Assembly (NCBI GenBank): GCA_964477745.1
Contig: CAYZEI010000002.1
Span: 5,054-69,053, forward strand
DNA from: an uncultured Candidatus Saccharibacteria bacterium
GTDB lineage: Bacteria > Patescibacteriota > Doudnabacteria > UBA920
Direction of reading: 5' to 3'
DNA: 64,000 nt
Made by a program: the position numbers and the translations under genes. Of the stretch, positions 4,858 to 60,510 are shown piece by piece. Numbering within the stretch: the first letter of the stretch is position 1; every line of letters starts with the position of its first letter. The notes beneath the pieces were generated by a model that searched no databases, was not told the DNA's origin, and worked only from the letters and a program-made list of their open reading frames with translations.

Positions 4858-5964
4858 GTGCCTATGTTTATTTTTTTAAAACGTTTTAGACATTTTGATA
4901 TTCCTTTGCTCGCCACCACTCTACTTCTGTCACTGGCGGGCATTGCTATTTTATACAGCACCACTTTGTCAGAAAACAGCAATTCACTGTTTTACCGCCA
5001 AGTCCTAATTTTGGTCGCCGGTTTATCCGCCTCGTTATTTTTAAGCGTTTTGGATTATCACACTCTGGCAAAAGCAAACCGAATTATTTACGTTGTCTTT
5101 GTACTTTTGCTGGTTTATTTGGAAATTTTCGGTACCGTAATTCGCGGAGGAACGCGCTGGTTGGATTTAGGATTCTTTCGTTTTCAGCCGGCGGAGTTTG
5201 TTAAGTTGGTAGTAATTTTTGGTCTGGCCAGATTACTTTATTTAAAACGCGGGCAAATAAATTCCCTCAGCACTTTAGTTTGGTCTTTTGCATACGCATT
5301 GGTTCCGGCGGGCTTGGTGATTTTAGAACCCGATTTAGGTTCGGCCATTATTATTTTAGGCTTATGGTTAGGGATTATTTTACTAAGCCCGATTAAAAAA
5401 AAGTTTTTGGCCATTATGTTTATTTCCTTTTTGGTCGTGGCCGGACTTGGCTGGAAGTTCTTTTTAAAAGATTTCCAGAAAGACCGAATAATGGTATTTA
5501 TAGACCCGACCTTAGACCCACGCGGTAAAGGTTATAACGTGCGCCAAGCCACAATTGCGGTAGGGAGCGGGCAATTTACCGGCCGGGGCTTAGGCAAAGG
5601 CGTGCAAAGCCAACATAAATTTTTACCGGAACGACAAACAGATTTTATTTTCGCAGCCGGTAGTGAAGAGATTGGGTTTTTAGGATCTTTTTCTTTGCTG
5701 GGATTATATTTCTTTTTATTTTTTCGCATTTTAAAAGTTATGAAAAAAGCCAAGGACGACTTGGGAATGTATATTGCCGGCGGAGTTTTATTCTTATTTT
5801 TTGGCCACGTAATTATTAATATCGGCATGAACATCGGCCTTTTGCCGGTAACTGGCATTCCATTGCCATTCGTCAGCGCCGGTGGCAGTTCACTAATTGT
5901 AAGCTTAATGGCTCTAGGTGTTGTACAAAATATTGCGGTGCAATCCAAAGCTTTGCGGTTTTAA
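4858..5964 (+). CDS. ftsW: SEDS-family peptidoglycan glycosyltransferase (FtsW/RodA)
   Basis: Polytopic membrane protein with FtsW/RodA-like motifs (GSGQFTGRGLGKG, PERQTDFIFAAGSEEIGFLGS, IPLPFVSAGGSS). Confidence 0.85.
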   Translation: MPMFIFLKRFRHFDIPLLATTLLLSLAGIAILYSTTLSENSNSLFYRQVLILVAGLSASLFLSVLDYHTLAKANRIIYVVFVLLLVYLEIFGTVIRGGTRWLDLGFFRFQPAEFVKLVVIFGLARLLYLKRGQINSLSTLVWSFAYALVPAGLVILEPDLGSAIIILGLWLGIILLSPIKKKFLAIMFISFLVVAGLGWKFFLKDFQKDRIMVFIDPTLDPRGKGYNVRQATIAVGSGQFTGRGLGKGVQSQHKFLPERQTDFIFAAGSEEIGFLGSFSLLGLYFFLFFRILKVMKKAKDDLGMYIAGGVLFLFFGHVIINIGMNIGLLPVTGIPLPFVSAGGSSLIVSLMALGVVQNIAVQSKALRF

Positions 5965-6504: not shown

Positions 6505-7191
6505 ATGGATAAACTGCAAATCAAAGCCACACTTAGAGACCTAAAAACCTCCAAGCCTGAAAAGTTAAGAAAAGAAGGACGTCTTCCGGGAGTACTTTAC
6601 GGCAACAAAGTGCAAAACGTTAACTTGACTGTGGACGCCAGAGAATTCGACAAATTACTTAAGAAAGCCGGCGAAAGCACTATTATAGAATTAGTCACCG
6701 ATGACGGTAAAACCCACCCGACACTAATTCACGACGTACAAAATCACTATTTAACCTCCGCACCTACTCACGTTGACTTCTATGAAGTTAGCATGACCAA
6801 AAAATTAAAAGCGACTGTCGCTTTGGAATTTGTTGGTGAATCACAAGCTGTAAAAGCCCTTGGTGGAATTTTGGTTAAGGCTTTGTCCGAAGTTGAAGTT
6901 GAATGTTTACCGGTAGACTTACCTCATAACATTGTTGTGTCTTTGGATGTCTTAAAAACACTTCACGATACAATTCATGTCAAAGATCTTCCAGTACCCG
7001 CAAAAGTTAAAATTATAACCGAACCAACCGAATTGGTTATTAAAGTTCAGCCTCCTCGAGAAGTGGAAACTGAATTATCTACCCCGGTTGTTGAAGATGT
7101 CAGCAAAGTTGAAGGCGCCGCCGAAGATAAACCGGTTGCAACAGCAGACGGCAAAGCAGATGCAAAAGCCAAACCGGAAGCAAAAAAGTAA
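6505..7191 (+). CDS. rplY: 50S ribosomal protein L25 / general stress protein Ctc
   Basis: MDKLQIKATLR...GRLPGVLYG motif. Lys/Ala-rich C-terminal tail. Start chosen at the internal ATG with an AAGGA SD (the track ORF starts at 6454). Confidence 0.85.
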   Translation: MDKLQIKATLRDLKTSKPEKLRKEGRLPGVLYGNKVQNVNLTVDAREFDKLLKKAGESTIIELVTDDGKTHPTLIHDVQNHYLTSAPTHVDFYEVSMTKKLKATVALEFVGESQAVKALGGILVKALSEVEVECLPVDLPHNIVVSLDVLKTLHDTIHVKDLPVPAKVKIITEPTELVIKVQPPREVETELSTPVVEDVSKVEGAAEDKPVATADGKADAKAKPEAKK

Positions 7192-7266: not shown

Positions 7267-8148
7267 ATGAAAGTTGATAAAAAATTCCTTGGCCCGGCAA
7301 TATTTGCCATAATTATTTTACTAGGCGCATCTCTGCACCAATATTTTTACAATCAAAAAGTACTCAAAGAAATTGAGTACCAAAAAGCGGGGGACACGGC
7401 CTATCAATATTTAATTACTCCGAAAGATACCGCCGAACTACCGCAAACTACCGGACAAAATGTTAAATTGCCTATATTAATGTACCACCATGTCGGCCCA
7501 CTACCGGACAAACCGAGCGCTTTGCGACGCGATTTAACAGTTTCTACGGAAGATTTTGAAGCGCAGGTAAAATGGCTCGCGGACAACGGATATCACAGCA
7601 TCAAATTAAAAGAGTTCTACGAATATTCTTTAGGCAGATTCACCTTGCCAACAAAGCCGATTGTTTTTACCTTTGACGACGGCTACCAAGACGTCTTTTC
7701 TTACGCCGCCCCGATTTTAAAAAAGTACGGCTTTGTGGGGAGCTTTGCAATAATTACGCAATTCCCCAGCACACAAAACGGGGACAATACTTATGCCTCC
7801 TGGCAAGAGATTGCCACCGCTTACTTGGCCGGGAATGAAATTGTTTCTCATACCCAAAATCATTTTGACGGAAGTAACAAGAAATACTCAGCGGACTTTA
7901 TCCAAAAAAATCTCTGCAACTCAAAAACAGACATAAAGGAACACTTGGGTTTTGAAAGTAATATTTTAATATACCCTTACGGCCATTACACCACTCAATA
8001 CATAACGGAAGCAAAAAACTGCGGGTTTGACTTAGGCCTAACTGTACACGCCGGCAGTAAAATAAATTTGGATAACCTAATGGAAATTCCACGCCTCAGA
8101 ATTCACGGCAATCAAAATTTTGAAAAATTTAAACGACTTCTCCCATAA
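7267..8148 (+). CDS. Polysaccharide deacetylase (NodB-homology domain)
   Basis: TFDDGYQD motif and His motifs. N-terminal TM. Confidence 0.75.
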   Translation: MKVDKKFLGPAIFAIIILLGASLHQYFYNQKVLKEIEYQKAGDTAYQYLITPKDTAELPQTTGQNVKLPILMYHHVGPLPDKPSALRRDLTVSTEDFEAQVKWLADNGYHSIKLKEFYEYSLGRFTLPTKPIVFTFDDGYQDVFSYAAPILKKYGFVGSFAIITQFPSTQNGDNTYASWQEIATAYLAGNEIVSHTQNHFDGSNKKYSADFIQKNLCNSKTDIKEHLGFESNILIYPYGHYTTQYITEAKNCGFDLGLTVHAGSKINLDNLMEIPRLRIHGNQNFEKFKRLLP

Positions 8149-30727: not shown

Positions 30728-30765
30728 ATTCTACGCGACTCTGTAATTACATAGTCGCGTAGAAT
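30728..30765. repeat. P-family 38-bp palindrome copy 1 (attctacgcgactctgtaattacaTagtcgcgtagaat, one mismatch) + T-run; probable terminator
   Basis: Homologous to 37853..37890 and 59076..59113. Confidence 0.6.
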
Positions 30766-37852: not shown

Positions 37853-37890
37853 ATTCTACGCGACTCTGTAATTACAGAGTCGCGTAGAAT
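37853..37890. repeat. P-family palindrome copy 2 (perfect 38-bp, centre TAATTA)
   Basis: attctacgcgactctgtaattacagagtcgcgtagaat. Confidence 0.6.
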
Positions 37891-57003: not shown

Positions 57004-58098
57004 TTATCTTGTCGCGAAGAATTCCAAGTATTTTTCTACAAACTCATCTAATTCTCCGTTAAGCACGCTCTCGGGATCGGACATCTCAAGTGCCGTGCGA
57101 TGATCTTTAACCATCTTGTACGGATGCAAAACGTATGAGCGAATTTGATTCCCCCACTCCGCGGACTTAAACTCCCCGCGAATTTCCTGTTTTTCTTTTT
57201 GTAATTTTTCTTCTTCCAAAGTTTTCAATTTAGCCATTAAAATTTTCATGGCGATTTCCCGGTTCTGATGCTGACTGCGTTCATTTTGAATACTAACCTT
57301 TATGCCGGAAGGAATATGGGTAATTCGAATAGCAGAGTATGTGGTGTTTACAGACTGACCGCCATGACCGGAAGCGGTATTGGCTTCTATCTTTAAATCT
57401 TTGGGGTCAATTTTTAATTCTTCTTGTTCTTCTAAAAGTGGCAATAATTCTAATAGCGCAAAAGACGTTTCGCGGGTATGAGCGGGGTTAAAAGGACTCA
57501 AGCGCACCAAGCGATGTACCCCGGCTTCACTTTTAAATAAACCGTAAGCGTACGGCCCCTTTACTTCCACCACGCAAGTTTTTAATCCGCCTTGTTCCCC
57601 GCGTGAGAGTTCCAAAATTTCCGTGGTAAAACCTTTTTTGTCCGCGTAACGTAAAAACATGCGCAGGAGCATATCCGCCCAATCTTGCGCGTCCACTCCC
57701 CCGGCGCCGGAGTGTAAAGAAAATATGGCGTTGTGGTCGTCAAATTTTTTATTTAACAAAGCCACAAACCGATTTTTTTTGTACTTTTCTTCCAGCTCGC
57801 TAAATTGTTTTTTTAAATATTCTACGGTCTCTTCCGATTCATCCTGATTGGTTTTGACCAATTCCAAAGTCTCTTGGGTTTCTTTTTCTAAATTTATCCA
57901 AAAATCATAAAAGTTTTTTAATGCCTTGTATTCCTGAGAAACTTTTTGAGCGTGTGCATTGTCCGCCCAAAAATCCGGAGCTTGCATTAAATCGGCCAAC
58001 TCTAAAACCCGCTGTTGTTTTTGTTCCAACCGCAAATGGCCTTTTAAATCCGAAATTGCACTTAACAATTCGGCTAATTTTTTTTGTAATTCATTCAC
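57004..58098 (-). CDS. prfB: Peptide chain release factor 2 (single continuous ORF, no +1 frameshift site)
   Basis: SPF motif (RLSPFNPAHTRE). GGQ motif. Confidence 0.95.
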   Translation of the reverse strand: MNELQKKLAELLSAISDLKGHLRLEQKQQRVLELADLMQAPDFWADNAHAQKVSQEYKALKNFYDFWINLEKETQETLELVKTNQDESEETVEYLKKQFSELEEKYKKNRFVALLNKKFDDHNAIFSLHSGAGGVDAQDWADMLLRMFLRYADKKGFTTEILELSRGEQGGLKTCVVEVKGPYAYGLFKSEAGVHRLVRLSPFNPAHTRETSFALLELLPLLEEQEELKIDPKDLKIEANTASGHGGQSVNTTYSAIRITHIPSGIKVSIQNERSQHQNREIAMKILMAKLKTLEEEKLQKEKQEIRGEFKSAEWGNQIRSYVLHPYKMVKDHRTALEMSDPESVLNGELDEFVEKYLEFFATR

Positions 58099-58282
58099 AG
58101 GAAGATATTAAAAATAACTAGTTCATTATAACAGGAAAAATGCCGCATTATATACTAAATTGGACAAAATGTCAATACCCCCGCTTTTTAAAGGTATAGA
58201 CATTTTAGTGGTTTTTTGTAAAAATGTATGGTCAAGAGAAAATCACATCTCTTGAGAAAACCCCAAAGGAGGGGTAAATACA

Positions 58283-58489
58283 ATGGTTAATATACTTCGT
58301 GGTTTGCTGGGAGCCATAGCTGTCGAATTTGCACTAATTCCTGCTGTCGCAGGGTGGTGCCGAGGAGAGGGATGCGTCTCCAATACTTTCGGAGTAGGAT
58401 TACTCCACATTCTGGCAGTCGCCTGCCTAATTTGCGGAGCTGTCGCCACATTTTGGCCAGCGATCACCAGCCGTCAGAAACTGCGGTAA
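58283..58489 (+). CDS. Small hydrophobic/membrane peptide (68 aa) in GC-rich islet
   Basis: AAAGGAGGGG SD 8 nt upstream. Two hydrophobic segments. Confidence 0.4.
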   Translation: MVNILRGLLGAIAVEFALIPAVAGWCRGEGCVSNTFGVGLLHILAVACLICGAVATFWPAITSRQKLR

Positions 58490-58507
58490 ACACTACCGCA
58501 TACTCTC

Positions 58508-58538
58508 GCAGGGAACCCTGGTTCCCTGCTCTTTTTTA
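58508..58538 (+). terminator. Terminator (gcagggaacc-ctg-gttccctgc + T6), followed by two more hairpins (58550-58582, 58599-58617)
   Basis: On direct reading. Confidence 0.65.
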
Positions 58539-58592
58539 TATAAAATTTTGGCCGTGCTCCCCTTGTAAGAGTCACGGCCAGTGTCTGCGAGT

Positions 58593-59021
58593 CTATATGG
58601 CCACGTTGTAGTGGCCTAAGATGTATTCTATAAGCACCTCCTTCTGTGCCAGTTTGTGGTGTCCTTCCAGGTGTTTGATCCCCGAAAAAAGTAATATCCT
58701 GATTAACTGCTGGCGACTAACCCCGTAAGAACGGGACAGCTCGCCAAGTTTGCTAATCAAAGACGGACGACAGGGTATCTTCCCCTGGTGATGTGCCACA
58801 TCACTGTTCAATTCGTTTCCCGCTTGGAGCGGGAAATCAGGTTGGCGTTCTATCACGGATAGCATAACCTCAAGCAGAAATACTGTCTGCTCTACTAAAT
58901 GCCTACCGCTTTGCTCCGCCATCTCCGCAAGAAGATGGTGAAGCTCTTTTCCATATCCAAGGGACAGTTTTGCGGGCATGATTTGCCAGCGAACATATCC
59001 CGGGCTGTAGTATTCTACCAA
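58593..59021 (-). CDS. Putative tandem ribbon-helix-helix (CopG/Arc-like) DNA-binding protein in GC-rich islet
   Basis: KLSLGYGKELHHLLAEMAEQSGRHLVEQTVFLL and LISKLGELSRSYGVSRQQLIRILL both fit the RHH beta-alpha-alpha pattern. The true start may be the internal ATG (MPAKL). Confidence 0.35.
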   Translation of the reverse strand: MVEYYSPGYVRWQIMPAKLSLGYGKELHHLLAEMAEQSGRHLVEQTVFLLEVMLSVIERQPDFPLQAGNELNSDVAHHQGKIPCRPSLISKLGELSRSYGVSRQQLIRILLFSGIKHLEGHHKLAQKEVLIEYILGHYNVAI

Positions 59022-59045
59022 ATTTACGAGAAAAAATCCATACTT

Positions 59046-59165
59046 AAAAACCGCTCTGCGAGAGCGGTTTTTACTATTCTACAAGACTCTGTAATTACAG
59101 AGTCTTGTAGAATCCTTTAATAATATTCATGAGACATAAAATGCGCGGCCGCGCATTTTATGTCA
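59046..59165. repeat. Three consecutive palindromes downstream of folA: aaaaaccgctct-cgc-agagcggttttt; P-family copy 3 (59076..59113, attctacAAgactctgtaattacagagtcTTgtagaat); cataaaatgcGCGGCCGCgcattttatg
   Basis: P copy 3 differs from copies 1 and 2 by paired compensatory changes that keep perfect dyad symmetry. Confidence 0.6.
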
Positions 59166-59184
59166 GCTGGATAAAGGTTTAAAT

Positions 59185-59658
59185 TTAAATTTTTTCGTAG
59201 TCTACAAAAGTAAATCCGTCGTGCGGTTCTTCTTTAACTTTTTTCCAAATTTTTGAATCTATTTCCGGAAAATATACATCACCCTCATATTTTTTAGCAA
59301 TATGGGTAATAAATAATTTATCCACCCGGTTTATTAACTGTTTGTATATCATTGCACCACCGACCACGTAAGTCTCTTTATCCGCCAAATCTTTTAGCGC
59401 CTGTTCCAAATCCGCGTATAGCAAAACCCCTTCCGGGACTTTGTCTTCCGGATTATTGCTAATAACCACATTTAACCGGCCAGGAAAAGGTTTCTTTAAA
59501 ATATCCATAATGGATAAAAAAGTGTTCCGTCCCATAAGTACCGGCTTACCCATAGTAATTTCTTTAAACCGTTTTAAATCCTCGGGCAAATTCCAAGGCA
59601 GGCCGTTTTTTATTCCTATTACATTGTCTTGTGCCACCGCGGCAATAATTGAAAGCAT
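59185..59658 (-). CDS. folA: Dihydrofolate reductase
   Basis: IIAAVAQDNVIGIKNGLPW...LMGRNTF. Confidence 0.9.
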   Translation of the reverse strand: MLSIIAAVAQDNVIGIKNGLPWNLPEDLKRFKEITMGKPVLMGRNTFLSIMDILKKPFPGRLNVVISNNPEDKVPEGVLLYADLEQALKDLADKETYVVGGAMIYKQLINRVDKLFITHIAKKYEGDVYFPEIDSKIWKKVKEEPHDGFTFVDYEKI

Positions 59659-59697: not shown

Positions 59698-60510
59698 CTA
59701 AATGGCTATTGGCGCCTTAATCCCCGGATCCGGATTGTAATTTTCCAAAGTAAAATCTTCGTATTTAAAATCAAACAAGTTTTTTACTTCCGGGTTCAAT
59801 TTCATTGTCGGCAAAGCTTTTGGTTGGCGGGATAATTGCAAATTTACTTGCTCAAAATGGTTATTGTAAATGTGTGCATCGCCCAAAGTGTGCACAAATT
59901 CTCCGAGTTCCCTTCCGGTAACTTGCGCAATCATCATAGTCAAAAGCGCATAAGAGGCAATATTAAACGGCACACCCAAAAAAGTATCTGCTGACCGTTG
60001 ATAAAGTTGGCAGGACAATTTGTTGTTGGCTACGTAAAATTGAAACATGGTATGGCAAGGTGGTGGTGCGGTTTTTTTACCGGCAATTAAAGATTGCAAA
60101 TCCGCCACATTCCATCCCGAAACAATCATACGCCGGTTGTCCGGATTATTTTTAATTTGATCCAAAATGTAAGCAATTTGGTCAAAAGTTTCGCCGTTGT
60201 ACCCTTTCCAGGCTCGCCACTGTTTGCCGTAAACCGGACCCAAATCCCCATTTGCATCTGCCCATTCGTCCCAAATTGTCACCCCATGCTCATTTAACCA
60301 TTTTACGTTGGTGTCGCCTTTTAAAAACCACAGAAGTTCATAAATAATGGATTTTAAATGAATTTTTTTGGTAGTCATTAACGGAAAACCCTTGGCTAAG
60401 TCAAACCTCATTTGATAGCCAAAAATGGACTTCGTGCCTGTGCCGGTACGATCATGCTTCTGTGCACCATCGTCTAGTATTTTTTGTAAGAGATCTAAAT
60501 ATACTTTCAT
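59698..60510 (-). CDS. thyA: Thymidylate synthase
   Basis: HDRTGTGT...[11 protein letters not shown]. Confidence 0.95.

Follow-up and report, generated by a model that had tools for sequence, protein, structure and literature searches.

Two probably independent transcription units, a small membrane peptide cassette and a predicted double ribbon-helix-helix gene, between folA and prfB in uncultured Doudnabacteria

The window analyzed here is a 64,000-nucleotide stretch of DNA from an uncultured member of the Doudnabacteria (CPR), and the locus of interest is an islet between the housekeeping genes folA and prfB that consists of a gene for a small peptide and a second gene, here called X, with hairpins throughout. 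The GC content of the islet is 0.49–0.52 against ~0.40 around it, and the ~5 kb on either side hold housekeeping genes only, with the same neighbors (dCMP deaminase, dUTPase, tmk, thyA, folA, prfB, ftsE, ftsX, and rplI) in all of the lineages, ~10 of which were available for comparing X and the peptide cassette (relatives are given below as L numbers). The ABC ATPase near the islet is FtsE, paired with FtsX. A first-pass annotation had proposed that a 68-aa peptide is convergent with a protein of ~128 aa, and both proved to be genuine ORFs, as judged from coding signatures and conserved homologues. A structured non-coding RNA was rejected as the source of the GC-rich islet, given the clear codon-position bias in both ORFs; Rfam returned no match at E ≤ 1 in the islet except hairpin noise, and neither a tRNA nor a tmRNA was found there. 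The features of the locus, in window positions, are as follows.

58147–58175, minus strand: perfect consensus promoter (TTGACA-17-TATAAT, 12 of 12 positions), back-to-back with the peptide promoter
58197–58226, plus strand: promoter-like site of the peptide gene, -35 TAGACA and extended -10 TGTAAAAAT (consensus scan)
58232–58255, no strand assigned: inverted repeat TCAAGAGA-N8-TCTCTTGA with an 8-bp stem, at the predicted start of the peptide mRNA
58260–58275, plus strand: small stem ACCCC/GGGGU pairing part of the SD (58265–58274), from the minimum-free-energy fold
58283–58489, plus strand: peptide gene, 68-aa small membrane protein (from the ORF, SD, dN/dS, and divergent alleles)
58482–58500, plus strand: hairpin GCGGU-loop-ACCGC over the peptide stop codon (fold)
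58508–58539, plus strand: intrinsic terminator of the peptide gene, a 9-bp GC-rich stem (hairpin 58508–58529) followed by TCTTTTTTAT (terminator scan, z -4.4)
58549–58580, minus strand: terminator-like hairpin of X, followed on that strand by AAAATTTTAT (-20.9 kcal/mol, z -4.5)
58593–58979, minus strand: gene X, 128 aa, predicted single-chain double ribbon-helix-helix (RHH) with a C-terminal helix
58599–58616: stem within the 3' end of X (fold)
59012–59020, minus strand: putative extended -10 element (TGGTAGAAT) of the X promoter, read from the sequence
58500–59027, no strand assigned: recombination block from the X -10 element across the X terminator to the peptide terminator, 99.1% identical to L005
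59045–59073, minus strand: intrinsic terminator downstream of folA, bidirectional, with 13-bp perfect arms flanked by an A-run and a T-run (z -4.1)
59076–59113, no strand assigned: P-family 38-nt perfect palindrome, a REP-like intergenic element (z -7.3)
59124–59173, no strand assigned: lineage-specific palindrome with core CATAAAATGCGCGGCCGCGCATTTTATG (z -5.6)

The ORF of X amounts to 142 aa when counted from a TTG and to 128 aa from the ATG at 58979, and the shorter form is preferred because this ATG matches the N-termini of the homologues. Between the window and L001 the gene shows a dN/dS of 0.15, and third codon positions account for 27 of its 42 changes. The AF2 model of X, built from a shallow 15-sequence alignment, reached a pLDDT of 82 and a pTM of 0.80, and the model built from the single sequence was unusable (pLDDT 42). 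It places a strand at residues 3–8, helices at 11–24 and 28–45, a second strand at 65–70, helices at 72–85 and 89–104, and a final helix at 113–120, such that a strand followed by two helices occurs twice and the strands pair as an antiparallel ribbon, i.e., the RHH fold in tandem. The earlier suggestion that the two halves of the protein each fit the RHH pattern is hence carried forward as a tandem RHH predicted with good confidence, and the outcome that had been named as its refutation, a protein lacking this fold, is not what the model returned. At the level of sequence, the X of the window had no Pfam match at E ≤ 1, and none of the 15 X members exceeded the gathering threshold of the Pfam RHH families PF01402, PF03869, and PF05509; the best sub-threshold scores across these members were to PF01402 (RHH_1; E 0.011, one member), Arc (0.1, two members), and TraY (0.14, one member). 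Searching PHROGs gave a CopG-like family at E 0.027 (below threshold), a PDB sequence search with the single sequence gave noise only, and the X profile retrieved RelB from the PDB at E 0.84. The two halves align with each other in register, although not significantly (hhalign E 0.037, probability 1.4%). Since no curated RHH model reached its threshold, the assignment of the fold is based on one AF2 model. In Pfam, NCBIfam, PADLOC, and PHROGs, no model of a toxin, an antitoxin, or a defence system was hit above noise by either X or the peptide, and a PADLOC hit to REase_II at E 0.012 was discarded as spurious.

The same pseudo-dimer architecture as that predicted for X is found in F-plasmid TraY, DndE, AvtR, and VirC2. 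TraY (PDB 9f0x chain E) is a relaxosome accessory to which X is ~15% identical, with the Pfam TraY model unmatched; it is plasmid-borne, whereas X belongs to the chromosomal core of a CPR class, has no plasmid relatives, and lies in a locus devoid of oriT, relaxase, and transfer genes. DndE (PDB 5wtu, 7x4e, 4lrv) and VirC2 (2rh3) are natural single-chain double-RHH proteins that share 8–13% identity with X, but no dnd or vir genes lie near X, and nothing suggests for it the role of DndE, which binds nicked DNA within a modification complex. AvtR of the lipothrixvirus AFV6 (PDB 4hv0) is an archaeal virus protein and single-chain Arc (1u9p) an engineered one, and with neither does X share sequence or context. 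The type II antitoxins (RelB, ParD, MazE, CopG-type, TacA) possess one RHH, dimerise, and combine a toxin-binding tail with a co-transcribed cognate toxin, while X has a pair of RHH units, stands alone in most cases, and has no toxin from any known family beside it. The natural proteins with two RHH units in one chain are few (TraY, VirC2, DndE, and AvtR), and each of them is connected with mobile DNA, a virus, or DNA modification; X, by comparison, represents an unannotated double-RHH family that neither Pfam nor NCBIfam models, and it is core and syntenic across an entire CPR class.

Upstream of X, TTGGTAGAATACTACAGCCC is invariant in 6 of 6 aligned window-clade contigs (three lineages), and TGnTAAAAT occupies the same place elsewhere. 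Hairpins equivalent to the X terminator, although of other sequences, lie downstream of X in L011, L012, L014, L018, L021, L024, and L025, and a leader motif GCYCTGGC occurs 10–35 nt upstream of the X start in L011, L012, L014, L018, L024, and L025. X is a Doudnabacteria-specific and fast-evolving protein, and most likely a lineage-specific transcription factor whose DNA binding would be sequence-specific. As a monomer it could set its two-stranded β-ribbon into the major groove of DNA, and it probably regulates its own expression through the GCYCTGGC-type motif conserved at its start site. The family opens a way into the transcriptional control of unculturable organisms.

The peptide gene has an SD, AAAGGAGGGG, placed 9 nt upstream of its ATG, and its dN/dS against L001 is 0.22. 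Its hydropathy profile is that of a hydrophobic protein: a polar loop that contains Cys connects two hydrophobic stretches, and the C-terminus is basic. The first-pass annotation would have been undermined by a peptide ORF that is not conserved; the ORF is, however, open in four allele types that are 31–48% identical to that of the window. Twelve columns are invariant (M1, A11, E15, G24, C26, G28, C31, N34, G37, V38, A45, and R68), Glu15 lies inside helix 1, and the loop that links the helices follows the motif G-x-C-x-G-x(2-3)-C-x2-N-x2-G-V. Positive selection on the peptide was not supported (dN/dS ~0.4, with dS saturated). No match was found in Pfam, NCBIfam, or PADLOC, and PHROGs gave just a weak TciB-like hit at E 0.09. 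The peptide is best described as an orphan, predicted two-helix membrane protein, presumably a helical hairpin with a buried Glu, and by the positive-inside rule the C-x-G-x-x-C loop would face outward. Class II holins and pinholins, type I toxins, and small divisome-associated proteins such as YmgF resemble it in general build, with 65–70 aa that form two hydrophobic helices and end in a basic C-terminus, but the peptide has no sequence match to them in Pfam, NCBIfam, PHROGs, or PADLOC, and neither a lysin nor an antisense RNA was detected at its locus. Neither the invariant helix-1 Glu nor the Cys-containing loop motif is known from holin, type I toxin, or YmgF-like families.

The gene is part of a cassette of ~430 bp in which the ORF and its terminator are accompanied by an inverted repeat, invariant and located at the start site, and by the back-to-back consensus promoter; the flanks of the cassette are better conserved than the peptide coding sequence itself. 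Both elements of the peptide promoter are kept in L001, L005, L011, and L012, as is the consensus promoter, which is aimed at prfB in the window and at X in L011 and L012; in the window clade the cassette may also provide a strong promoter ahead of prfB. The inverted repeat is unique in the window (0.01 expected), and the 63-nt region around it folds with z -3.4. Its arms, TCAAGAG/CTCTTGA, are invariant with a spacer of 8–11 nt, and it was detected in 15 of 15 loci with the peptide gene and 0 of 10 loci without it; a 5' stem-loop and a binding site for a protein are both possible roles. The small stem over the SD is kept in L001 in a shifted register with changes on both sides; as it is not evident in L011 and L012, its significance is uncertain.

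That three terminator-like hairpins separate the two genes, as first proposed, was borne out, with z from -4.4 to -5.6 versus shuffles for those between the two stop codons (58482–58500, 58508–58529, and 58549–58580). The GCGGT/ACCGC arms of the hairpin over the peptide stop codon are kept in L001, L005, and L012, and the stem of the peptide terminator survives two-sided changes in L011 and L012 (GCAGGAGACC.GGTCTCCTGC). The three palindromes that had been reported between X and folA, including a P-family copy, are likewise real by the z values listed above, and all of the previously noted hairpins and palindromes fold far better than shuffled sequence. The stem of the folA terminator is preserved in L001 and L005 despite changes on both sides. 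The P-family pattern TTCTAC-NN-GACTCTGTAATTACAGAGTC-NN-GTAGAA occurs three times in the window (30729, 37854, and 59077; 0 expected), the other two copies starting 4–5 nt past stop codons; a copy at the same site was found in L018 and a compensated variant in L005. Its use as an operator of X was rejected, since the other copies directly follow unrelated stop codons. The palindrome closest to folA is present in L007 and absent in L005 and L001. These structures, taken to be REP-like palindromes and the terminators of the three genes (folA, X, and the peptide gene), may jointly insulate convergent transcription. The hairpins at 58232–58255, 58260–58275, and 58599–58616 add to those noted earlier.

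In 9 of 10 lineages, on contigs covering both flanks, the order is folA (tmk in L025), X, and prfB; the contig of L024 begins at X and that of L025 ends in prfB. X lies immediately upstream of prfB on every contig that reaches this flank. Its GC content exceeds that of the surroundings in every lineage (0.48–0.51), and a horizontally acquired island was rejected for X, as the gene is GC-rich throughout yet strictly syntenic. The cassette is carried by some lineages only: it lies downstream of X and convergent with it in the window clade, upstream of X and divergent in L011 and L012, and X occurs without any peptide gene in seven lineages (L014/15, L017, L018, L021/22, L023, L024, and L025). 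Homologous pairs in related genomes had been suggested as a check on the first-pass annotation, and the pairing turned out not to be constant. Relatives differ further in variable insertions beside the locus (L001 carries a GIY-YIG gene and L012 PDDEXK_3, and thyA is swapped in type).

Alleles of the two genes have also moved separately. Across the recombination block, 523 of 528 positions are identical between the window and L005, a sister lineage, compared with 86–89% in thyA, folA, prfB, and ftsE (binomial P ~1e-28) and 86–91% (about 88%) in housekeeping genes, while the peptide genes are only 60.8% identical and their proteins 50%. The same mosaic is present in four independent assemblies (L005, L006, L008, and L009), and an assembly chimera was rejected because each allele combination recurs in independent samples. 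The dS of the peptide gene against L005 (1.08) is above that of folA and prfB (0.66), which points to the import of an older allele. From these comparisons, X and peptide alleles appear to be exchanged separately among related genomes via homologous recombination. Searching the conserved DNA motif of the cassette against a metagenome contig collection recovered only an already-known contig and against a viral contig collection nothing, and tblastn against phages and plasmids as well as scans of viral contigs with both protein alignments revealed no relatives.

We consider it fairly probable that the islet consists of two independent monocistronic units between folA and prfB, rather than an operon or a paired module. 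From their separate promoter-like sites and terminators, X and the peptide gene are predicted never to be co-transcribed. The toxin/antitoxin logic of which the first-pass annotation had been reminded is not supported, in view of these separate signals, the lineages in which X stands alone, the switch of the cassette from one side of X to the other, a 99%-identical X block beside 50%-identical peptide alleles, and the lack of an above-noise match to any toxin or antitoxin model in the four databases. In terms of a type II system, which would be a same-strand, co-transcribed pair whose partners co-occur and co-vary, the genes here are convergent (divergent in L011 and L012), seven lineages are peptide-free, allele identities are mismatched, and the peptide matches no known toxin family in Pfam, NCBIfam, or PADLOC.

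One alternative would see a regulated membrane effector, in which X represses the peptide promoter through TCAAGAG-N8-11-CTCTTGA over the transcription start, and a peptide that is harmful or conditionally useful (a membrane-active protein that is holin-like, toxin-like, or a modulator of a membrane machine such as FtsEX) is freed once X is titrated or degraded; this would be a repressor-controlled, toxin-like arrangement and not a classical type II pair. The repeat is placed exactly where a repressor would block initiation, its arms are invariant across cassettes whose peptides share ~31–48% identity with that of the window, the cassette adjoins X in both arrangements, from lineages with ~83% identical PrfB, and the half-site CTCTTG is similar to GCTCTGGC, the motif of the X leader, with GCTCTTGC in the X leader of L017. 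We nevertheless regard this as rather unlikely: seven lineages retain X without cassette or inverted repeat, peptide alleles were swapped while X was unchanged, the predicted DNA-facing β-strand residues differ (K-S-G in the window-type X versus R-T-C or P-S-K in L011/L012) with the repeat identical, and a spacer varying from 8 to 11 nt suits an RNA stem-loop more than an operator of fixed geometry. A related and more doubtful proposal is that X and the cassette make up a chromosomal module not described before in CPR bacteria, in which a single-chain double-RHH repressor silences a fast-evolving, membrane-active peptide via the inverted repeat and peptide alleles are traded among strains through recombination in a conflict, or in which X promotes local cassette exchange as TraY and DndE assist nicking; if it were true, the conflict would be phage exclusion, competition between cells, or the interaction of these episymbionts with the host cell. 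An X that resembles TraY, DndE, or VirC2 in bending DNA or marking a nick or recombination site, and that thereby drives the exchange of cassettes, would fit the sharp edges of the allele replacement and the variable insertions in relatives (GIY-YIG in L001, PDDEXK_3 in L012, and thyA type). Such a DNA-processing accessory factor is highly improbable, however, considering that the loci examined hold no relaxase, Dnd, integrase, or transposase gene, that the edges of the block fall in conserved sequence, as ordinary homologous recombination would give, and that similarity inside the RHH superfamily does not predict partner proteins.

A type I toxin–antitoxin-like cassette would pair a peptide toxin with an antitoxin RNA, made either from the divergent promoter or by convergent read-through. 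The peptide is small and hydrophobic, its 5' UTR is structured, including the stem over the SD, and a perfect consensus promoter stands back-to-back with its own, which in L012 is followed within ~20 nt by a strong hairpin and a T-run that could end a short RNA; a convergent partner gene is moreover present in every arrangement, and read-through from it, which may occur, would be antisense to the peptide mRNA. Yet the duplex energies between divergent transcripts and peptide mRNA are no better than those of shuffles in five cassettes (z -0.4 to +1.2), Rfam gives no match at the locus, the promoter in the window and L011 just leads into prfB or X, terminators stand between the convergent genes, the SD stem is not kept in L011 or L012, and a hydrophobic peptide of 68 aa with two helices exceeds typical type I toxins, which are smaller, so that we deem this reading very unlikely. 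Least credible of all is a bacteriocin-immunity pair, as had been suggested before, or a phage remnant with the peptide as holin and X as an Arc/Mnt-like repressor. Class II holins and immunity proteins are of similar size, with two helices and a basic C-terminus, RHH repressors are common among phages, and there is the weak TciB-like match in PHROGs; but neither a bacteriocin precursor nor a C39-peptidase exporter of the peptidase-ABC type or modification genes lie adjacent, lysis-cassette context and holin family matches are absent, no endolysin or other phage or plasmid gene is nearby, phage, plasmid, and viral-contig collections hold no relatives, and X is a vertically syntenic core gene.

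The cassette adjoins X in both known arrangements, and the description as independent units possibly understates a functional link between them. In practical terms, a pair like this one should not be annotated as toxin-antitoxin from composition alone. The locus is a clean example of cassette-level recombination between CPR genomes ~12% diverged: a nearly identical 528-bp block adjoins a gene whose own allele has given way to one that appears to predate the split of the genomes themselves.

The islet between prfB and folA (beyond folA lie thyA and tmk) has a GC content of 0.49-0.52 versus ~0.40 in its surroundings, and a search for an Rfam family, tRNA or tmRNA as the source of this GC-rich stretch returned none that accounts for it. 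It holds two convergent open reading frames (ORFs), one for a 68-aa peptide and one for a protein that we call X, which is 128 aa long from the ATG at 58979, where its homologues begin. An identical 128-aa protein is recorded under Candidatus Doudnabacteria (CPR/Patescibacteria), which places the window in a genome of this group.

Features of the islet and its flanks
57004-58098, minus strand: prfB, with PCRF and RF-1 domains, one flank of the islet
58232-58255: inverted repeat on the 5' side of the peptide ORF
58260-58275: predicted stem partly occluding the Shine-Dalgarno (SD) sequence
58283-58489, plus strand: peptide ORF, 68 aa, preceded by the SD AAAGGAGGGG
58482-58500, 58508-58529 (plus T-run) and 58549-58580: hairpins between the two stop codons
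58593-59021, minus strand: X ORF, convergent with the peptide ORF, 142 aa counted from TTG
59045-59073, 59076-59113 and 59124-59173: palindromes between X and folA (z -4.1 to -7.3)
59185-59658, minus strand: folA (DHFR), the other flank

Both ORFs, proposed by the first-pass annotation, are genes as judged by dN/dS and homologues. The same arrangement is found in the sister lineage L001-L004 (L-numbers denote related loci from other assemblies), with protein identities of 89% for X and 91% for the peptide; in this comparison dN/dS is 0.15 for X, where 27 of the 42 changes fall at third positions, and for the peptide it is 0.22. The other reading frames give ratios above 0.6, apart from the antisense frame whose third codon positions coincide with those of the genes (0.17 and 0.27). 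The conservation of the peptide ORF, on which the annotation had made its proposal depend, extends to three further, far more divergent alleles in which it stays open (L005-type, 48% identity; L011, 33%; L012, 31%), with 12 invariant columns that include E15, G24, C26, G28, C31, N34, G37 and V38.

The three hairpins between the genes and the three palindromes before folA, all previously reported, are present and fold far better than dinucleotide shuffles. Some would terminate transcription of folA, X and the peptide gene, and compensatory changes back several of these terminators; the remainder would be REP-like palindromes. The P family, a copy of which had been placed near folA, is real: the window has three copies where zero are expected. 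Its members (consensus TTCTAC-NN-GACTCTGTAATTACAGAGTC-NN-GTAGAA) are perfect palindromes of 36-38 nt at 30729-30764, 37854-37889 and 59077-59112 of the window and at about 2835-2872 of L018; the NN pair co-varies (AA/TT vs GC/GC), two window copies start 4-5 nt past stop codons, and the site between folA and X also carries a copy in L018 and a compensated variant in L005. These appear to be clade repeats of a REP-like or terminator-like kind. The 50-nt palindrome at 59124-59173 (GC core with GCGGCCGC) is restricted to the window-type lineage, including L007, and L005 and L001 have other short sequences after folA at this place.

X has no match in Pfam or NCBIfam, and a weak CopG-like match in PHROGs (E 0.027). 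When 1.8 billion representatives were searched exhaustively with HMMER, only five relatives were credible, and a profile search of a larger collection extended the family to 15 clusters of 128-141 aa. A single-sequence structure model was useless (pLDDT 42); the AlphaFold2 model from the 15-sequence alignment reached a pLDDT of 82 and a pTM of 0.80, and consists of a strand (3-8), helices (11-24 and 28-45), a linker, a second strand (65-70), helices (72-85 and 89-104) and a further helix (113-120). Fold searches with this model matched permuted single-chain Arc (10.3), AvtR (8.3), DndE (8.1, 8.0), the ribbon-helix-helix (RHH) part of WYL1 and VirC2 (5.0), followed lower down by dozens of conventional RHH repressors and antitoxins, and the top eleven Foldseek matches were all TraY chains. 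According to published work (PMC12117103, PMC10853773), TraY and DndE are monomers in which a single chain supplies the complete RHH dimer and then a C-terminal helix; X is predicted to have this layout. The sequence-level evidence is weak but points in the same direction: the second half of the X profile aligns in register with the RelB RHH domain (E 0.84), RHH_1, Arc, TraY and ParD-like models give sub-threshold matches to some family members, and the two halves give an in-register, non-significant alignment with each other. Given the model, the TraY/DndE-like layout and these hints, we accept X as a predicted tandem RHH protein, well supported, as had been suggested for its two halves; it is a new sequence family with an already known fold and architecture. 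Elsewhere in the window, 7486-7647 has weak tblastn similarity to X (30% over 66 aa, E 0.21) and might be another RHH-type gene.

In the recovered lineages X lies immediately upstream of prfB (the L024 contig begins at X), and the gene before it is folA, or tmk in the short contig L025, within the order dCMP deaminase, kinases, dUTPase, tmk, thyA, folA, X, prfB, ftsE, ftsX, rplI. X evolves fast, being 45-50% identical where PrfB is ~80% identical. Homologous pairs in related genomes, which the first-pass annotation had suggested looking for, exist in the sister lineages, but many X loci stand alone: neither a peptide-like ORF nor the inverted repeat was found in the fetched DNA of the X-bearing L014/15, L017, L018, L021/22, L023, L024 and L025. 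L018 is a close relative (PrfB 95% and FtsE 97% identical), yet its X is just 37% identical and the peptide gene is missing, and L025, with the nearest outgroup X (65% identical), has X directly between tmk and prfB, likewise without it. L011 and L012 carry a homologue of the peptide gene, placed in the folA-X gap and divergent from X.

The two genes have also been exchanged separately. The window, L001 and L005 lineages (the window clade) are about equidistant in thyA, folA, prfB and ftsE (86-91% nucleotide identity, dS ~0.65), whereas in the block 59027-58500, which runs between the X -10 element and the peptide terminator, the window and L005 share 99.1% identity (523 of 528 positions; binomial P ~1e-28), and in the adjacent peptide gene only 60.8% (protein, 50%). 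At 1.08, the peptide dS is higher than the dS of the genomes, which indicates that the L005 allele was imported and is older, rather than having diverged in place; dN/dS of ~0.4 gave no signal of positive selection on the peptide in this comparison. An assembly artefact was ruled out as the source of the mosaic, since independent samples yielded each allele combination repeatedly. As a case of cassette recombination the mosaic is neat, though not unprecedented.

Alignment of the window, L001, L005, L011 and L012 delimits a ~430-bp cassette whose non-coding flanks are more conserved than its coding sequence. On the 3' side are an A/T stretch and a terminator, the stem of which changes from GGGAACC/GGTTCCC to GGAGACC/GGTCTCC through paired substitutions; on the 5' side are the SD, the inverted repeat TCAAGAG-N8-11-CTCTTGA (arms invariant, spacer variable), the extended -10 and the -35 of the peptide promoter and, back-to-back with it, a predicted outward promoter, a perfect TTGACA-17-TATAAT. 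The latter faces prfB in the window, X in L011, and a hairpin with T-run before X in L012. The cassette is always on the strand opposite the housekeeping genes, and from its positions in the window clade versus L011 and L012 it has been placed sometimes in the spacer before X and sometimes in the one after it; the window clade set against L025 looks like tmk/folA-X-terminator-(cassette)-prfB. The L012 hairpin (4897-4940), within ~20 nt of the outward promoter and before the X promoter, has a 14-bp GC-rich stem, is not present in the window, and could make a short RNA or be an attenuator or insulator.

The peptide itself is an orphan small membrane protein with two hydrophobic stretches, a Cys-containing loop between them and basic residues at the end, and would form a helical hairpin. 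The positive-inside rule would place both ends in the cytoplasm and the C-x-G-x-x-C loop on the outside. A conserved Glu within the membrane, together with His or Arg in helix 2, points to an ion-pair/proton-linked function or to a specific contact between helices of the peptide and of another membrane protein.

Two monocistronic units are the best-supported reading. X would be a pseudo-dimeric RHH protein working as a monomer, with its beta-ribbon inserted into the major groove, and its role would be that of a lineage-specific transcription factor. A motif of the GCYCTGGC type, 10-35 nt before the X start codon and just downstream of the -10 in six lineages (L011 4968, L012 4973, L014 4966, L018 2961, L024 69, L025 222; related CAGCCCGGG...GCTGGC in the window clade), is a candidate autoregulatory site or operator for X, or a 5'-UTR element.

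The toxin-antitoxin (TA) or bacteriocin-immunity logic first proposed for the islet is not supported, as X often occurs without the peptide gene and the alleles were swapped separately, unlike what is expected of a cognate pair. A type I TA reading fails a complementarity test, in which pairing between the divergent transcript and the peptide mRNA was no stronger than for shuffles in five cassettes, and for a bacteriocin-immunity pair or phage remnant neither a supporting neighbour at the examined loci nor a relative in phage, plasmid and viral collections was found. X might be a TraY/DndE-like DNA-processing factor, but partner genes are missing at the examined loci. The main rival reading has X repressing the cassette by way of the inverted repeat: the cassette adjoins X in both arrangements, the repeat arms are invariant and located exactly at the predicted start site, and CTCTTG resembles the X-leader motif. 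However, the cassette is missing beside most X genes, the predicted DNA-facing strand residues differ among X alleles that would need to read one repeat, and the spacer length varies, so we regard such control as unlikely in comparison with two monocistronic units.

Several further differences mark this region. ThyA of the window (59698-60510, 270 aa) is 99% identical among the three lineages of its clade, while all other relatives (L011, L012, L014, L018) have a 309-aa ThyA just 59-66% identical to it, L018 included despite its PrfB being 95% identical to that of the window, which suggests that thyA was replaced in the window clade. An insertion in the tmk-thyA gap of L001 (3818-4417), which neither the window nor L005 has, encodes a 95-aa GIY-YIG protein as well as a 90-aa ORF and may be of homing-endonuclease type, and L012 alone has a PDDEXK_3 nuclease-like ORF between ftsE and ftsX (7322-7780). 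In the window prfB is a single 364-codon ORF with the internal frameshift site absent. In relatives it starts 6-9 nt after the -10 element TGCTATAAT (L012 about 5480-5500, L014 about 5462-5481, L025 about 700-718), and its mRNA would therefore have little or no leader; prfB of the window clade (58099-58140 region) has a GTG start behind two promoter-like sites, the cassette consensus promoter and TGTTATAAT. L001 has ~75 extra nt directly before the prfB start (about 6900-6975), with inverted repeats CCCCGTTAGAAAT / ATTTCTAACGGGG at the ends and GTGAAC flanking both sides, which looks like a miniature inverted-repeat insertion.
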